DNA from: Mustelus asterias
Taxonomy: Eukaryota
Direction: 5' to 3'
Length of the DNA: 64,000 bases
NCBI RefSeq assembly: GCF_964213995.1
Contig: NC_135803.1
Coordinates: 126,728,001-126,792,000, forward strand
A model generated the notes under the pieces. It worked only from the letters and a program-made list of their open reading frames with translations. It did not search any database and had not been told where the DNA came from. This document shows positions 3,850 to 53,377 of the stretch, piece by piece. How positions within the stretch are numbered: the stretch's first letter is position 1; each line of letters starts with the position of its first letter. Position numbers and translations under genes: made by a program.

Positions 3850-4178
3850 GATAAAAACATTGTAGATGCTGGAACTCTGAAATCAAGGCAGAAAGAAATG
3901 TTGGAAGTATTCAGCATGTCAAGGCAGTACATGTGGAGAGAAACATCGATTGAACGTTTCCAGGTTCTTTTTGTTTCAGCAGACTGGAAAAGGCTAGAGA
4001 GGTGATCAGATTTAAGCAAGTACAGAGGCAGGGAAAGTGGTGGTGGAGGGGTGGAAAGAACAAAAGAGGATTAGTAATAGATAAAGGCAAATTACTGTGG
4101 ATGCTGGAATCTGAAACAAAAACAGAAAATGCAGGAAAATCTCAGTGGACCTGACAACATCTGTAGAGAGAGAATAGA
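3850..4178 (-). mobile_element. Decayed Penelope-like family-2 terminal fragments
   Basis: Two copies of the GATGCTGGAATCTGAAACAAAAACAGAAAATGCTGG terminus also seen at ~5995-6095 and 30505-30632. The second copy continues at 4723-4790 after a family-1 insertion. Family assignment is by inference. Confidence 0.55.
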
Positions 4179-4722
4179 CATGATGTGGAGGTGCCGGCGT
4201 TGGACTGGGGTAAGCACAGTAAGAAGTCTCACAACACCAGGTTAAAGTCCAACAGGTTTATTTGGTAGCACAAGCCACAAGCTTTCGGAGCACTGCCCCT
4301 TCATCAGGTGAGTGGGAGTTGTGTTCACAAATAGGGCATATATAGACACAAACTCAATTTACAAGATAATGGTTGGAATGCAAGTCTTTACAGGTGATTA
4401 AGTCTTAAAGGTACAGACAATGTGAGTGCAGAGAGGGTTAAGCACAGGTTAAAGAGATGTGTATTGTCTCCAGCCAGGACAGTTAGTGAGATTTTGCAAG
4501 CCCAGGCAAGTCGTGGGGGTTACAGATAGTGTGACATGAACCCAAGATCCCGGTTGAGGCCGTCCTCGTGTGCGGAACTTGGCTATCAGTTTCTGCTCAG
4601 CGACTCTGCGTTGTCGTGTGTTGTGAAGGCCGCCTTGGAGAACGCTTACCCGAAGATCAGAGGCTGAATGCCTGTGACTGCTGAAGAGTTCCCCAACAGG
4701 AAGAGAACACTCCTGCCTGGTG
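4179..4722 (-). mobile_element. Penelope-like element (family 1) 3' fragment
   Basis: Homologous to the left arm at 25991-26439 (end of the GIY-YIG coding region plus 3' region); has the same terminal GATGTGGAG.TGCCGGCGTTGGACTGGGGT tail. Confidence 0.85.
4276..4310 (-). ncRNA. Minimal hammerhead ribozyme motif in Penelope-like element
   Basis: Minus strand reads CAC-CUGAUGA-A-GGGGC-AGU-GCUCC-GAAA-GCUU-GUG. Confidence 0.7.
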
Positions 4723-5994
4723 AATCGAGCCAGTGTTTCACATCAGGAAGACCCTTCACAGAGCTGCTGAAATTTTCCAGCATTTTCAGGATTAGTAATA
4801 GGGTGGAAAGCAGGTGGGATTAAATGCCAAAAAGAGGTGATGGTGAAAGGCAGAAGACTGTGCTAATTGGATAAGTTTTTTTAAAAAAATGGGTGTCGAG
4901 GAGATGTGAATAGCTGCAGCAAAATATCAGAAGAGGGAGAAGGTTTGGGAAGTCTGACGAGAGGAGAGGTCCCTGTGGCCTGGAACTGCGACAAATGAAA
5001 GGCCGGTGGATCCCAGGAGTGCCGCCCACCTTGCCAGCCATGTACTGATACGGAATTCCCACTCCTTTGCACCTGTTACTAGTGACTATGGTACAGCTAT
5101 TTCCATTGCCAGCACCTGCTATTCATGAGAAAGTAGGAAGCTTAGTGAAGGTTTAAGGTTGTTAAATTTGACTGTAAAGTACAGGGGATATAGTTTTTTC
5201 CCCAATAACTTTCCAAAGGTCCCCTGTTTTTTAGAAGTTATTAAATTCATACCAAGTTATTGTTCCACTCATGCAGACCGTTCTTCATTATTTTTGTCCA
5301 AGTAGATTTCCTTCATGTATGATTTGGGTACATAGACTATCAACAATTTCTATCAGAGACTTCACAACTGATAAATTGATTGGTGTCCTACAAATCTTGG
5401 TGTTTTCCATTCAATTGCAAGTACGGTAGTACAAATTAAACCTATTGGGACAGTCACCTACTCAATTTGTCCTTTATGTCAAGTTCATTCATCATTTGGG
5501 ATAATGGTGTTGGATATCTCCAATTAGCTTTAAGATGTTCCAAAGCAAGGGACAAGATCTGGACAAGGCTACTGCGTTTTACTATGTAGCAGAGGTCACA
5601 ACATAGCAATAATTTGCGAGGACATGGGGTAAGGATAGTTGCAGCATTGATGCAATGCACTCCCCATGTCAAATAGTCTCTTGACACAAAATCAGATAAC
5701 TTTGGAAAAGGTACCAGGCAAATATTGAGCATTACGGTTTTGTAGGTACTGCAGAGGATTAATCGTGGGGCCATTTGACATTTGGTGATATGAATATGCC
5801 ATTCAAATTGTAGTCATCCTTTGTTTCAGGTGCATGCATCAAAAATAATTCTGACAACCAGTCTCATTCTAAGTATAATAATCCTATGTAACACAAAATG
5901 CACATTTAAGTCAAAGTGGATACAAGACAATTGATAATTAACAATCTACATGGCATCAAAAGATATCACTTTGTGATTCCTAAACCACATTGGC

Positions 5995-6095
5995 TTTATT
6001 CCCTCTCCACAGATGCTGTCAGACCTGCTGAGATTTTCCGCCATTTTCTGTTTTTGTTTCAGCTTCCAGCATCCACAGTATTTTGCTTTTATCTA
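5995..6095 (+). mobile_element. Penelope-like family-2 terminal fragment
   Basis: Reverse complement of the 4081-4170 sequence. Confidence 0.55.
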
Positions 6096-6141
6096 CTAAA
6101 TATTGATCCTTTTCGGTAGCAAGCTTTACATTCCTGTTATA

Positions 6142-9161: not shown

Positions 9162-9280
9162 TGATGTGGACATGCCTGTGTTGGACTGGTGTGGGCACAG
9201 TAAGAAGTTTCAATATCAGGTTAAAGTCCAACAGGTTTATTTGGAATTACGAGCTTTCGGAGCGCTGCTCCTTCTGTGAT
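9162..9280 (-). mobile_element. Penelope-like family-1 short 3' fragment
   Basis: Same tail and GGTTAAAGTCCAACAGGTTTATT segment; truncated inside the hammerhead; imperfect TSD CATTGAGTAA/CATTCAGTAA; inserted in an old CR1 tail. Confidence 0.8.
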
Positions 9281-20400: not shown

Positions 20401-21689
20401 TTGTTGATGATGTCTGTTGTTGCCATGATCAAACTGCTATCTTCTTTGGGACTACCTCTAAGAGCACATGATGAGTCATCATTGTCAAATCGAAAAGGTA
20501 ATATTTTTATCTTGCTTTGAATATCTCAGTGAATTTGATGAGCTTCTCAAAGAGCCTTTTGAAAAGTTGTCAATACTGTAGCTCAGGGAAGACCAACTTT
20601 TCAATCCACCAGACCTATGAATACTTTACTCTAATAGCAGAGTGGCTGAGAAACCAATTCATGAATGAAGTTAAAGATGCCAAATACTATTCCATAATAG
20701 TTGATTCAACACCAGCTGTGAGTCATGTGGAACAATTAACAGTAATTTTAACATATGTGATCAGCAGTGGTGAACTTGTAGAGCAACTTCTTTGTTTTGT
20801 CCAGCTAAAATCACACCTGCTGAATGTCTGAAGACAAATGTTTTAGAAATCATTGAAAATTTAGGTTTGAACATCAAAAATTGTTGTGGGCAGAGCTTCA
20901 ATAATGCAATAAATATGGCAGGAAAATATTCAGGTCTACAAGCAAGACTGAACAATGTAAGCCGCTGCGCATTATTCATCCCATGTTCCAGTCATTCCTT
21001 GAATTTAATCTGCAATGCTGCAGCCAAATCCTGTGAGGTGCTATACATTTTTTTGACTTTGTTCAAAGCCAAGTATGCCTTTCTTTCGTTTTCCACACAT
21101 CGGTGGAATATATTACAATCAAATGGAAAACATTTGACAGTGAAAAAAATTCATGACACCAGGTGGTCTGCTCGTGCAGATACTGTTTTGGCTTTGAAAA
21201 TGTCCTTCGATGATATAAAGGAAATCTTATTAGACATAGCCAAATCAAATTCAAAAAAACCATGTGTGAAACTAAAGCAACATCCTCAGGAGAGAAGTTT
21301 GAAAGGTGCAATATTGCTGTTTTTATTCTTTTGTTGAACCGTTTACTTCAAAGAATTAATGTCAGCAGACTGCTGCAAAATATTGATACAAATTTATTTA
21401 TTTAGTTAAAATTTTATCATGGAAGTTGAAAATGATTGCAGCTAGATGGAAGCAAAAGCACTAACGCTAACAACAAATATAGGCTCCTCTGATATCAGAT
21501 GAGAAGCGTATAAGACATAGGAAGTTATTTCTCAGTGAAACTAGAGACAATGAAATCATTTTAAAACAGGAAAGAGAAGATCATCATTGAGACTGTCAAC
21601 GCTATTTGTGACACTCTAATGGTGAAATTGCAGAGTAGAAGTGAATCTTTGAAGAAAACTGTTGATTTATTTTGTGTGCTTTTTGACAG

Positions 21690-24666: not shown

Positions 24667-24869
24667 ATGTGGAGATACCGGTGTTGGACTAGGGTTGTCA
24701 AGATGAGAGGCCAGATGGACCCCAGGTTATAGTCCAACAGGTTTATTTGAAATCACAAGCTTTCAGAGCGCTGCTCCTTCACCTGACGAAGAAACAGTGC
24801 TCAGAAAGCTTGCGATTTTAAATAAACCTGTTGGCCTATAACCTGGTGTCGTACGACGTTTCAACATCT
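24667..24869. mobile_element. Fold-back Penelope-like element (older subfamily)
   Basis: Arms 24722-24780 and 24788-24846 with a 7-nt loop, diverged outer arm, ~35-nt unpaired tail, TSD TCAATG; degenerate hammerhead at 24779-24815. Confidence 0.8.
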
Positions 24870-25320: not shown

Positions 25321-25468
25321 ATGGCGTCGTTAGCTTTCGACAGCGGCTCGCGCCCAACCGTTAACCCCGACATCGCGAGCGAGCGGGGGGATCCCACTTT
25401 CCCGCTCGAGAAACTGGTCAACCTGCTGGACGGCGGAGCGGGTCGCACCCGCACCAGGAGGGCTGTCG
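25321..25468 (+). CDS. ACOX2: ACOX2 coding exon 1
   Basis: gcgATGG Kozak-like start. MASLAFDSGSRPTVNPDIASERGDPTFPLEKLVNLLDGGAGRTRTRRAV is an ACOX N-terminus (NPDI..ER...F....L...LDGG). Donor G|gtgagt. Confidence 0.9.
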
Positions 25469-25490
25469 GTGAGTCCCGATCAGGGAACGT

Positions 25491-25700
25491 CCGCGGTCAA
25501 ACCGACAGTTGCATGGCCAGAGTGTGTCCGTTTAAACCGGGGGCTGCGTGGCCAGAGTGTGTCCGGTCAAACCAGGGGCTGCATGGTCAGAGTGTCCGGT
25601 TAAACCGGGGCTGCATGGTCAGAGAGTGTCCGGTCAAACCAGGGGTTGCATGGTCAGAGTGTGTCCGGTCAAACCGGGGGCTGCATGGTCAGAGAGTGCC
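25491..25700. repeat. GC-rich minisatellite, ~6 x 33-37 bp
   Basis: Unit CCGGTCAAACCRGGGGCTGCATGGTCAGAGTGTGT, starting ~22 nt into ACOX2 intron 1. Confidence 0.9.
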
Positions 25701-26051
25701 AATTTCACAATTACAGGATTTAATCCAAAACACTGAATAGACCTGAACTTTTCAGTTAAAGCCTCTAATTTGCCAGCTTGTCCCAAATCCAGTCTGGCAA
25801 AAACTCCCTTAACTAGATATTGGGAAGATTGACACAGTTGTCCTCTGTCCCCTCACTCCTGTCCCCTCGTCACCTCTCTCTGGAAGCTGTCTGCAATCTA
25901 ACCAAATTGCTCCTAACCTTTATAGCCCTATTTAACCGCAACATGATAAGACCGCCTATTTTACTGGTTCCCAAACTGGGGTCCATGAACCAGTAAGACG
26001 TTTAACAACACCAGGTTAAAGTCCAACAGGTTTATTTGGTAGCAAAAGCCA

Positions 26052-26088
26052 CACAAGCTTTCGGAGCTCTTAGCCCCTTCTTCAGGTG
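26052..26088 (-). ncRNA. Minimal hammerhead ribozyme motif (left arm)
   Basis: Mirror image of 26818-26854. Confidence 0.7.
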
Positions 26089-26817
26089 AGTGGGAATTCT
26101 GTTCACAAACAGAGCTTATAAAGACACAGACTCAAATTACATGAATAATGCTTGGAATGCGAATACTTACAACTAATCAAGTCTTTAAGAAACGAAACAA
26201 TGTGAGTGGAGAGAGCATCAAGACAGGCTAAAAAGATGTGTATTGTCTCCAGACAAGACAGCCAGTGAAACTCTGCAGGTCCACGCAACTGTGGGAGTTA
26301 CAAATAGTGTGACATGAACCCAATATCCCGGTTGAGGCCGTCCTCGTGTGTGCGGAACTTGGCTATCAGTTTCTGCTCAGCGACTCTGCGCTGTCGTGTG
26401 TCGCGAAGGCCGCCTTGGAGAACGCTTACCCGAATATCAGAGGCCGAATGCCCATGACCGCTGAAGTGATATTCGGGTAAGCGTTCTCCAAGGCGGCCTT
26501 CGCGACACACGACAGCGCAGAGTCGCTGAGCAGAAACTGATAGCCAAGTTCCGCACACACGAGGACGGCCTCAACCGGGATATTGGGTTCATGTCACACT
26601 ATTTGTAACTCCCACAGTTGCGTGGACCTGCAGAGTTTCACTGGCTGTCTTGTCTGGAGACAATACACATCTTTTTAGCCTGTCTTGATGCTCTCTCCAC
26701 TCACATTGTTTCGTTTCTTAAAGACTTGATTAGTTGTAAGTATTCGCATTCCAAGCATTATTCATGTAATTTGAGTCTGTGTCTTTATAAGCTCTGTTTG
26801 TGAACAGAATTCCCACT

Positions 26818-26854
26818 CACCTGAAGAAGGGGCTAAGAGCTCCGAAAGCTTGTG
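26818..26854 (+). ncRNA. Minimal hammerhead ribozyme motif (right arm)
   Basis: CAC-CUGAAGA-A-GGGGC-UAAGA-GCUCC-GAAA-GCUU-GUG: CUGANGA/GAAA core, helix II hairpin, helix I CAC/GUG, and a palindromic AAGCUU in place of helix III. Confidence 0.72.
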
Positions 26855-27029
26855 TGGCTTTTGCTACCAAATAAACCTGTTGGACTTTAACCTGGTGTTG
26901 TTAAACGTCTTACTGTGTTTACCCCAGTCCAACGCCGGCATCTCCACATCATGACGTCCATGAACCACCCAGGTGCCGTGGTCAACAGTAAGGGAGTGAA
27001 TGACAGCTGCAGGTGTGGCCCGCACAGCT

Positions 27030-27080: not shown

Positions 27081-27164
27081 GATGTGGAGATGCCGGCGTT
27101 GGACTGGGGTAAACACAGTAAGAAGTCTCACAACACCAGGTTAAAGTCCAACAGGTTTATCTGT
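27081..27164 (-). mobile_element. Penelope-like family-1 80-bp 3' stub
   Basis: Tail plus GGTTAAAGTCCAACAGGTTTAT; TSD CAGGCTT(GA) at 27074 and 27165. Confidence 0.85.
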
Positions 27165-48834: not shown

Positions 48835-49790
48835 AGAGACTCAGAGACAAAATGGCACAAAAGGAGCCCATTCTGGCCCTCTGTAGAACAATCCAGTCAA
48901 TCCTATTCCTTCACTATCTCCATAGCTCTGCAGGTTCATTTCCCTTAAATGCGCATTCAATTTCACTTTGAAATTATTGATCATTTCTGCTTCCAACGTC
49001 CACGTAGACACCAAGTTCCGGGTCATTACTACTCACGGGACTAGCTTAGGGGTTAAAATAAAGGGGCGGCATGGACAAGTTGGGCCGAAGGGCCTGTTTC
49101 CATGCTGTAAACCTCTATGACTTTAAGCTCTTCCACATTTCCCTGCTGCACCACTTGCCATAACCTTAAATTCCTTGTCCTTTTACCATCAGCTTTATTT
49201 TTGTCTACCTTATTTAAACTTGTCATAATTTTGTACCATGTATCAACTCAAATTTGTTTTTTTAAAATTAATGTCACAAGTAGGCTTACATTAACATTCA
49301 ATCTTTAACACACCCCTCAATCTGTTGTGCTCCGGGAACAGCTCCAGCTTCTCCAACCTAACATGTAACTAAAATCCCTCATTCCTTGAACCTTCCTGCT
49401 GAATCTACTCTGCACCATCTGATAGACCCTCACATCATTCCTAAAGGGTAATGATCAGATCTGGACACAGTGCTCTAGTTGTGGCCTAACCAGAGCTTTA
49501 TAAAGGTTCAGCATAACTTCCCTCCTTTTACTCGGTAAGAAGTCTCACAACACCAGGTTAAAGTCCAACAGGTTTATTTGAAACCAATTAGTGATTCCAA
49601 ATAAACCTGTTGGATTTTAACCTGGTGTTGTGAGACTTCTTAGAGTTCTGACCCCAGTCCAACGCCGGCATCTCCACCTCATGGCCTTTTATACTCAACA
49701 CCCATATTTATGAAGCCCAAAATTCCATATGGTTTGCTAACCACACAGTCAAATGTCCTGCCGCATTCATGATCTATGCATATGGACCTC
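48835..49790 (-). mobile_element. Old CR1 fragment with several nested insertions
   Basis: Degenerate CR1 3' half, interrupted by a + strand CR1 tail (~49040-49122), a SINE tail (~49260-49296) and a fold-back Penelope. Confidence 0.7.
49533..49684. mobile_element. Mini fold-back Penelope-like element
   Basis: Arms 49536-49580 and 49598-49642, ~40-nt tail, TSD CCTTTTA. Confidence 0.85.
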
Positions 49791-51929: not shown

Positions 51930-52180
51930 AGTATCTATTTATGTTGTGTCTGAAAGCATACAAATCTATAGAGAAATATATTAAATATTTAACAGCACAA
52001 CTGTTGTAATTTGGAAGATTAGGTACCTTTGACATTCCAACCCACTGCATTTACAGTGTGCTGTACCATAGTTGGCCATATATATATCATGTAGAGATGC
52101 CGGCGTTGGACTGGGGTAAACACAGTAAGAGTTTTAACAACACCAGGTTAAAGTCCAACAGGTTTATTTGGTAGCAAAAG

Positions 52181-52217
52181 CCATTAGCTTTCGGAGCGCT
52201 GCTCCTTCGTCAGATGG
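52181..52217 (-). ncRNA. Minimal hammerhead ribozyme motif
   Basis: Minus strand reads CCAU-CUGACGA-A-GGAGC-AGC-GCUCC-GAAA-GCUA-AUGG. Confidence 0.75.
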
Positions 52218-52260
52218 AGTGGAAATCTTTTCACTGGATCCACTGGAGTGGATTTCCACT

Positions 52261-52297
52261 CCATCTGACGAAGGAGCAGCGCTCTGAAAGCTAATGG
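52261..52297 (+). ncRNA. Minimal hammerhead ribozyme motif
   Basis: CCAU-CUGACGA-A-GGAGC-AGC-GCUCU-GAAA-GCUA-AUGG. Confidence 0.72.
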
Positions 52298-53377
52298 CAT
52301 TTGCTACCAAATAAACCTGTTGGACTTTAACCTAGTGTTGTTAAAACTCTTACTGCATATATACATCACCCAGAGGAATAAACTTGCATCAACCCTTCAG
52401 TTCTTTATTCCATAAATTCTGGGTCAAATTATTCTGCAGTTGCAGCTCCAATCTATGCACAAGATTTCCTGCTTGCTTCTGCATCAGACTAGCATTCAGG
52501 ATACTCTTCACTCCTCAGAACCTGCTGTTGAAATCTCGGTAACAGTCCAAACTCCAAGATTCCCTCTATTGACACCACAATCTCGGCCCAGTTCCAAGAT
52601 CAGTGCCTTCAATCCAATCTTAGCTGTTGACAAGTTAGATTTTTGAGTCTGGCTTGGCCCCCACAGAAACCAAATAAAATTATAGGAAATGATGGACTTT
52701 CCAAATTGCTGTCTAGTAATGCTCAATTTCTGCTAGTGCAAATCTTAATGTTGACAGTAATTTATAAACTACAGTAAATCAAATACTGTCTCTGGTAGTG
52801 TAGTATTTGTGATTTCTTTTAACTTGAATGGATGAGGGCCTTAAATAGATTTCTCAAGTGGAGTTAGCTGTTTAAACATCTTAGCTATGTAATGCAAATA
52901 GTTAAAGCTAACTATTGTTGAAAGAATTTATGCAACTACCAGAGTATTTGTTAAATTTTATTCTCCTATTTTGGACCATAAAGAACTTGCAATACAATAA
53001 TAACAAAAATCTGGGCACCAGAGATAAATTAACTTTGGAAATATATTTAATATACAAATTATTATAAGCATGCAAATACATTTGTTATACTCGCAATTAG
53101 GATAGCCATTTGGGACTAAGAGCTATACCGTCAATGATAGTTTATGATGAAGCAAAGAACACATGACTCCATCTTATATATTTTATTGAGATATGCCTAT
53201 TTTGGTTGCAGAATATGATGCAATCATAGCACAATATGATATTCTTTTGTCTAAGCCTGAAAAAACAATTCACTGAAGTTTTGCATTTTGAATGGCCTGT
53301 CCTTGGTGTAAAATTATTGTTATCATGCACCATTGCTTCTCATTTTATCTAGCCTCAGTACTTTTCCATCAAACAAC

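Follow-up and report, generated by a model that had tools for sequence, protein, structure and literature searches.

The window, a 64,000-nucleotide stretch of the Mustelus asterias genome, carries five copies of a small RNA motif that were confirmed, by sequence and structural descriptor, as minimal type I hammerheads, which a Neptune-like Penelope retroelement carries at its 3′ end. Truncated copies of this element pile up at the predicted hammerhead cut, and we consider it likely that minimal type I hammerheads in the 3′ pseudo-LTR (pLTR) cut part of the element RNA in the germ line and that the pile-up reflects this cutting. With somewhat less assurance, we favour the view that thousands of insertions record self-cleavage in vivo to the nucleotide, and that the share of such starts, which varies between subfamilies, would serve as an assay of hammerhead variant and dimer context readable from the genome.

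When the window sequence was checked, the five motifs were found at the positions and on the strands given by a first-pass annotation, which had described all five as intact; this held for four of them, and the fifth (52261-52297) has lost C11.1. The motifs and the features belonging to them were as follows:

26818..26854, plus strand: minimal type I hammerhead motif in coding intron 1 of ACOX2
26052..26088, minus strand: hammerhead motif identical to 26818..26854, in the opposite arm of the same insertion
4275..4311, minus strand: hammerhead motif with N7=U and loop AGU, in the single-armed insertion ~4180-4722
52181..52217, minus strand: hammerhead motif with helix I CCAU/AUGG, N7=C and H17=A
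52261..52297, plus strand: hammerhead motif with C11.1 changed to U, in the right arm of a 105-bp inverted repeat within ACOX2 intron 9
24779..24815, plus strand: old motif copy with intact core and broken helix II, ~500 nt 5′ of the ACOX2 ATG
9245..9272, minus strand: 5′-truncated arm without CUGANGA, starting 24 nt before the cut
25991..26950, no strand assigned: two-armed, head-to-head, 5′-truncated Penelope-like insertion
26468..26608, plus strand: C-terminal ORF fragment of the element (end of the GIY-YIG region)
26852..26950, plus strand: segment from the predicted cut to the element tail
49591..49680, plus strand: old-subfamily arm whose first base is +1 of the predicted cut; the inverted partner to which it is joined lies at 49535-49581

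The motif at 26818..26854 combines a CAC/GUG helix I with N7=A, an extra A, a 5-bp helix II and GAAA-GC-UU, and the core C3U4G5A6N7G8A9, G12A13A14A15.1 and U16.1H17 is present in all five window copies. Helix I of the copy at 52181..52217 carries a compensatory U-A pair at 2.1:1.1, and the change of C11.1 to U in 52261..52297 results in a G10.1-U11.1 pair. The predicted cuts fall after 26851 and 52293, as had been proposed. Two further sites had been listed as decayed copies; 24779-24815 is indeed one, its core kept and its helix II broken, and 9245-9272 is instead a truncated arm from which CUGANGA is missing.

The annotated number of three insertions was upheld, namely 25991-26950, ~52089-52355 and the single arm ~4180-4722, with target-site duplications (TSDs) on the first two. 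Since the two inverted pairs are the arms of single insertions, the window holds three independent motif sequences. The arms of 25991-26950 are 449 bp each and 100% complementary, with a 35-nt tail on the right arm only and a 12-bp TSD at 25981 and 26956; those of ~52089-52355 are 105 bp long and 97% complementary, with the TSD at 52077/52356, and the target duplications of both pairs measure 12-13 bp. A short extra arm of the focal element, which begins after the cut, lies at 27081-27163 on the minus strand, 130 nt past the focal insertion. The window also contains an ORF fragment at 20774-21337 on the plus strand, which we take to resemble a hAT-type transposase.

The RNA motif-descriptor check suggested by the first-pass annotation was run with a descriptor of helix I (at least 3 bp), CUGANGA, an optional bulge, helix II, GAAA, 0-6 nt and UH. 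It matched exactly the five motifs in the window and nothing in 40 first-order Markov simulations, and a 1.414-Mb genome sample gave 51 matches versus 0 when reversed. A loose CTGANGA...GAAA pattern was matched 14 times in the window versus 4.8 expected. The suggested Rfam search of the window returned 14 matches up to E 10 with no hammerhead family among them, presumably because the motif lacks helix III. Genome-wide, exact-core matches numbered 114,438 (80,492 + 33,946 for two patterns; 0 for the reversed patterns), a density at which one match is expected per ~32 kb. The 1.414-Mb sample also held a single hammerhead-like match of a third sequence type (plus strand), with a 6-bp helix II and an AGUU/AACU helix I.

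Long genomic copies of the element encode a reverse transcriptase (RT), a CX4CxxC linker and a GIY-YIG domain in one ORF. RVT_1 (E 4e-8) and GIY-YIG (E 6e-4, just under the curated cut-off) were matched in one long copy, the DKG motif was found in another, and the CX2-5CxxC linker, as described for the Neptune/Nematis type, was present in four. The assignment as Neptune-like and not Nematis would follow from this linker together with the host group, which we take as a pointer to the former. The peptide of the ORF fragment at 26468..26608 is also encoded by long copies elsewhere in the genome, and its stop precedes the hammerhead core by 212 nt, the placement of the motif in the element being ~210 nt past the ORF stop and ~100 nt ahead of the tail. 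Element copies show an inverted, 5′-truncated partner and a one-sided tail. Among 86 distinct tails, the following letters were A in 65, T in 64 and G in 49, and 3 of the 86 continue in the same frame into the same ATG-started sequence, with no full tandem among the sampled stretches. As the letters past the tail spell ATG and three tails run on in frame, the element tail likely ends at the ORF start. A non-LTR retrozyme was considered and rejected: the window shows no non-coding tandem array whose units each carry a hammerhead, its copies being arms, either alone or in inverted pairs, with remnants of the ORF. One long Penelope copy elsewhere in the genome is adjoined by ORFs of an LTR retroelement, presumably Gypsy-like to judge from their motifs.

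The identification as minimal type I hammerheads of a Penelope-like element (PLE), with covariation, was supported by pair counts as well as by the domains of the long copies. The 1.414-Mb sample was taken without regard to the core, and its 80 parseable arms were reduced to 55 insertions by a parse that allowed one mismatch per core block and was thus partly core-conditioned. The extra A was present in 55/55 insertions; N7 was U in 21, C in 20, A in 13 and G in 1, and H17 was U in 26, A in 17 and C in 12. Pair 2.1:1.1 was CG in 36 insertions, UA in 14 and other in 5, pair 10.1:11.1 was GC in 46, GU in 8 and GA in 1, and the palindromic 15.2-16.2 pair, which has no loop III, was GC in 53/55 and CG in a second family. 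Between 89 and 92% of cells pair, and changes on both sides were seen in 6 and 4 of 9 pairs in two tests. Pairing and covariation scores exceeded 500/500 shuffles and all slid registers, and the number of covarying pairs was not above the shuffles (153/500 and 50/500). Each compensatory change is probably a single event, so that the covarying cells would reflect few events on the tree.

The second family keeps the core and the extra A, and its pairs 2.2:1.2, 2.3:1.3, 2.4:1.4, 10.4:11.4 and 15.2:16.2 are changed on both sides, the last from GC in the focal family to CG. This repeat family (GAAA-CG-UU, helix I AGCY/GGCU; 3,548 exact matches, 10 in the control) consists of short copies that start just 5′ of the motif. 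The ~4180-4722 insertion sits inside a decayed copy of it (4727-4763 and ~4075-4180, both on the minus strand), a few bases past the predicted cut of that copy, and a second-family body without a recognisable core lies at 5985-6098 on the plus strand. The first-pass annotation had further called the motifs selected self-cleaving RNAs; selection is tenable for the master lineages of the element and does not extend to the dead copies in the window.

Five arms in the 1.414-Mb sample start at the predicted cut. Truncated arms were listed across the genome, requiring mismatches upstream and leaving the nine positions ahead of +1 free, and their starts were tallied by eye from the first 100 listed arms of each subfamily in contig order. 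The focal GCUU^GUGUGG subfamily (first 100 listed of 1,718 arms) gave 36 starts at +1, 16 at -1 and 13 at -2, with 5, 3, 6, 1, 10, 5 and 5 at -3 to -9 (mean 5.0). Thus, 52 of the 100 listed truncated arms of this young subfamily begin at +1/-1 over a background of 5 per position, in a tally that includes 10 row pairs that are twin arms and a few mutated intact copies, and from which the filter hides a perfect AAGCTT palindrome join. A script tally of the first 30 focal rows agreed with the count by eye. In the GCUA^GUGGCG subfamily, which is also young (first 100 listed of 196 arms, ~14 of them not true truncations), +1, -1 and -2 held 19, 32 and 3 starts and -3 to -9 held 11, 6, 1, 4, 9, 7 and 8 (mean 6.6), with 51 of the 100 at +1/-1. 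The old GUGAUU subfamily (100 listed of 316 arms) was flat and showed no peak, 8 of 44 true truncations lying at +1/-1 after 56 rows were dropped as mutated or internally deleted copies, even though its core is identical and its helix I has 4 bp. The AUGGUA subfamily (100 listed; search pattern with one N too many) gave ~27 starts at +5 and ~23 at -1 to +2, and was taken as ambiguous and not as support because microhomology joins dominate.

By pattern count, 1,128 arms begin at +1 behind three mismatched bases; after correction for the filter, we estimate ~2,800 arms at +1 versus ~310-335 per background position. The control at +7 gave 601 arms, of which ~310 remain once the partners of arms ending at +1 (77/100 listed) are set aside; the background upstream of the cut amounts to ~335 per position, and in a wider listing (100 listed of 9,302 arms) +4 to +9 hold ~1-3 rows each. 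The joins of 31 +1 arms were inspected: 18 lead to an inverted partner via untemplated bases, 3 are direct without microhomology, 2 have 2 nt of microhomology and the remaining 8 lack a partner within 25 nt, and most of the 31 arms show 10-15 bp TSDs. Pairs of arms that each stop at +1, separated by a spacer of 1-3 nt, were recurrent. No 3′ end at the cut was found in 100 listed rows, a test resting on 3 true breaks since most rows belonged to another subfamily. Most arms retain the whole motif. A DNA-transposon hot spot at the cut triplet was not supported for the focal subfamily, as its +1 arms abut their own partner arm or target DNA and there were no 3′ ends at -1.

A broad second cluster of starts was seen at -27 to -45, where helix I has its outer edge; it covers CCACTC, which we take to be initiator-like by consensus. 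In the old subfamily, 24/34 arms begin in this stretch, 27-45 nt before the cut, and the cluster may mark the transcript start. A look for a cap-dependent extra G before one candidate start upstream of the motif (100 rows) gave 11 G, 2 T and 1 A; most of the G's are bases of the partner arm, and roughly a quarter of the rows were GAATTC palindrome joins.

The starts at the cut would be explained as follows. The RT of the element would initiate at the tail and copy to the 5′ end of its template; on cut RNA the cDNA would run off at +1 and be joined to the target or to another cDNA, usually with a few untemplated bases in between, and uncut RNA, the large majority, would yield a copy with the whole motif. 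We infer run-off on cut RNA from a sharp start that tracks H17 across subfamilies of differing downstream spacing, does not depend on microhomology and is without a 3′ counterpart. The retention of the whole motif by most arms implies that such cleavage would be partial, which is consistent with the Anolis data discussed below. Cutting would probably require a second hammerhead in the same tandem transcript (AGCU pairing) and/or an element protein, and either requirement would account for a flat old subfamily of mostly short, one-motif copies: this subfamily resembles a short one-motif unit, and it would be expected to lack the peak if it has no partner for a dimer. The same flatness also counts against cleavage. 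Nor does a clean cut predict the focal excess at -1/-2 or the GCUA counts, which are higher at -1 than at +1; the -1/-2 excess and the palindrome joins hidden by the filter stand as caveats without an explanation. By computation, the AGCU/AAGCUU duplex has low stability (-2.5/-4.3 kcal/mol), helix I was mostly unformed in 3/4 intact copies folded in isolation, and cofolding of motif copies did not yield the dimer fold. The young subfamilies have a 7-9 nt segment at +4 to +12, absent in the old subfamily, that can pair with the core AAAGC and is a predicted competitor of the active fold.

The main rival, which we hold to be unlikely though a serious candidate, accepts the structured motif and attributes the +1 pile-up to stalling of the RT at the base of a structure, or to nicking of a cDNA hairpin, and not to RNA cleavage; the structure would be the AAGCUU/AGCU palindrome paired in a dimer, or a bound protein. 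The -1 excess of the GCUA subfamily is what a stall immediately 3′ of AGCU would produce, some subfamilies have an AAAGC/GCUUU hairpin across the cut, and the flat old subfamily lacks the 7-9 nt segment past helix I. However, a duplex of 4-6 bp has far less stability than helix II, and no peak of similar size is seen at the 3′ base of helix II (-9); the peak remains in GUGGCGUUU copies, where the AAAGC/GCUUU hairpin is interrupted; and the recurrent arm pairs with both arms stopping at +1 speak against stalling as well. It is also conceivable, and in our judgement improbable, that the motif is a silent passenger kept for protein binding or as part of the internal promoter, the clusters being due to transcript starts, microhomology or later insertions at the cut triplet. 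The broad separate cluster just 5′ of the motif and the whole motif in most arms would suit a passenger, as would the Naiad PLEs, which in the available text of PMC8557442 proliferate without canonical hammerheads. Yet the +1 peak is distinct from the -27 to -45 cluster and mostly microhomology-free, later breaks or insertions would give 3′ ends at -1, of which none was seen (3 true breaks, 100 listed rows), and N7 and H17 vary exactly within the limits of hammerhead chemistry.

The remaining alternative, that the two sense copies cut ACOX2 pre-mRNA and were co-opted by the host, was judged highly implausible. A search with an ACOX2 exon gave three matches, all to shark proteins, as would suit a cartilaginous fish. 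Fourteen coding exons of ACOX2 were mapped on the plus strand:

25321..25467, plus strand: first coding exon of ACOX2
31277, 32385, 33193, 35010, 37008, 39327 and 45753, plus strand: further ACOX2 exons
51526, 54785, 59580, 60934, 63886 and one past the window end, plus strand: further ACOX2 exons

As annotated, two motifs are sense to the gene, the one at 26818 (coding intron 1) and the one at 52261 (intron 9), and this placement is what favours co-option. However, both lie in the downstream arm of their own inverted repeat (449 bp and 105 bp), and when 1,010 and 300 nt were folded, all bases of each motif were predicted to pair outside it, with the upstream antisense arm, at a probability of 1.0 in both. 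One of the two copies has lost C11.1, no free sense partner lies nearby, and with >114,000 copies an exact-core match every ~32 kb is expected anyway. The relevance to ACOX2 implied by the first-pass annotation is therefore unsupported, the sense copies being predicted to be locked in long hairpins whose antisense arm is transcribed earlier. The intron copies are predicted to be dead passengers base-paired to their own antisense arms, an effect of cleavage on ACOX2 is unlikely in these models, and a host function there was rejected on the predicted folding. Directly after ACOX2 exon 1, a 35-nt tandem array occupies 25475-25732, through which the exon frame stays open to 25740.

The motif itself is not new. 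The min-HHR class of metazoan PLEs was described by Cervera and de la Peña (2014; PMC4209133), who name among its features a palindromic 15.2-16.2 pair and an unpaired additional nucleotide between 9 and 10.1, so that the extra A pointed out by the first-pass annotation is present and already belongs to the type. The window motifs share with this class the type I core without loop III, G10.1-C11.1 and a short helix I, together with single or opposite-strand copies from truncated elements and compensatory families; they differ in a helix II of 5 bp with a loop of 3-5 nt. The copy number here is >114,000 compared with ~9,000 in the richest genome named in that study, obtained by another search. 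The text portions and supplement files of PMC4209133 that were searched mention neither sharks nor rays. The same portions give low dimer activity in vitro and no in vivo evidence, whereas here genomic 5′ ends mark the cut.

In Poseidon_Ac of Anolis carolinensis (Frangieh et al., 2024; PMC11167929), the hammerhead cleaves in vitro with assistance from protein, RT initiates internally at the tail and uncut RNA is the main template. The element studied here resembles Poseidon_Ac in a pLTR hammerhead near the ORF start, a tail at one end and uncut RNA as template, and differs in its Cys-rich linker (Neptune/Nematis type) and in a motif placed ~100 nt upstream of the likely ATG. For Anolis, the available text reports no RNA-seq reads that end at the cut, whereas ~2,800 arms by our estimate, of one subfamily, start there in Mustelus. 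With EN+ PLEs of the Neptune clade (Craig et al., 2021; PMC8557442), it has in common a C-terminal GIY-YIG, the CX2-5CxxC linker, 5′ truncation, an adjoining inverted copy and a 30-40 bp tail at one end; the function of PLE hammerheads is called unclear in that work. As with the 5′ HDV-like ribozymes of R2/L1Tc (reviewed in PMC6765202), a ribozyme cut would set the 5′ end of some insertions; the present element differs in that its motif lies at the 3′ end and that starts at the cut are confined to a minority of copies. A 2026 bioRxiv preprint on tandem retrozymes includes one chondrichthyan. Our literature search, which covered few subscription papers, found no report of insertion starts piling up at a hammerhead cut.

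The motif and its location in ACOX2 introns are themselves ordinary. What is added here is the pile-up of insertion starts at the predicted cut, likely a record of cleavage in vivo. Whether minimal Penelope hammerheads cleave in cells is the question that this pile-up addresses, as sharp and largely microhomology-free starts at the scissile bond are the footprint expected of cleavage. Since the pile-up can be measured per subfamily in any PLE-rich genome, it would become possible to test whether a dimer is required and what part cleavage plays in transposition.
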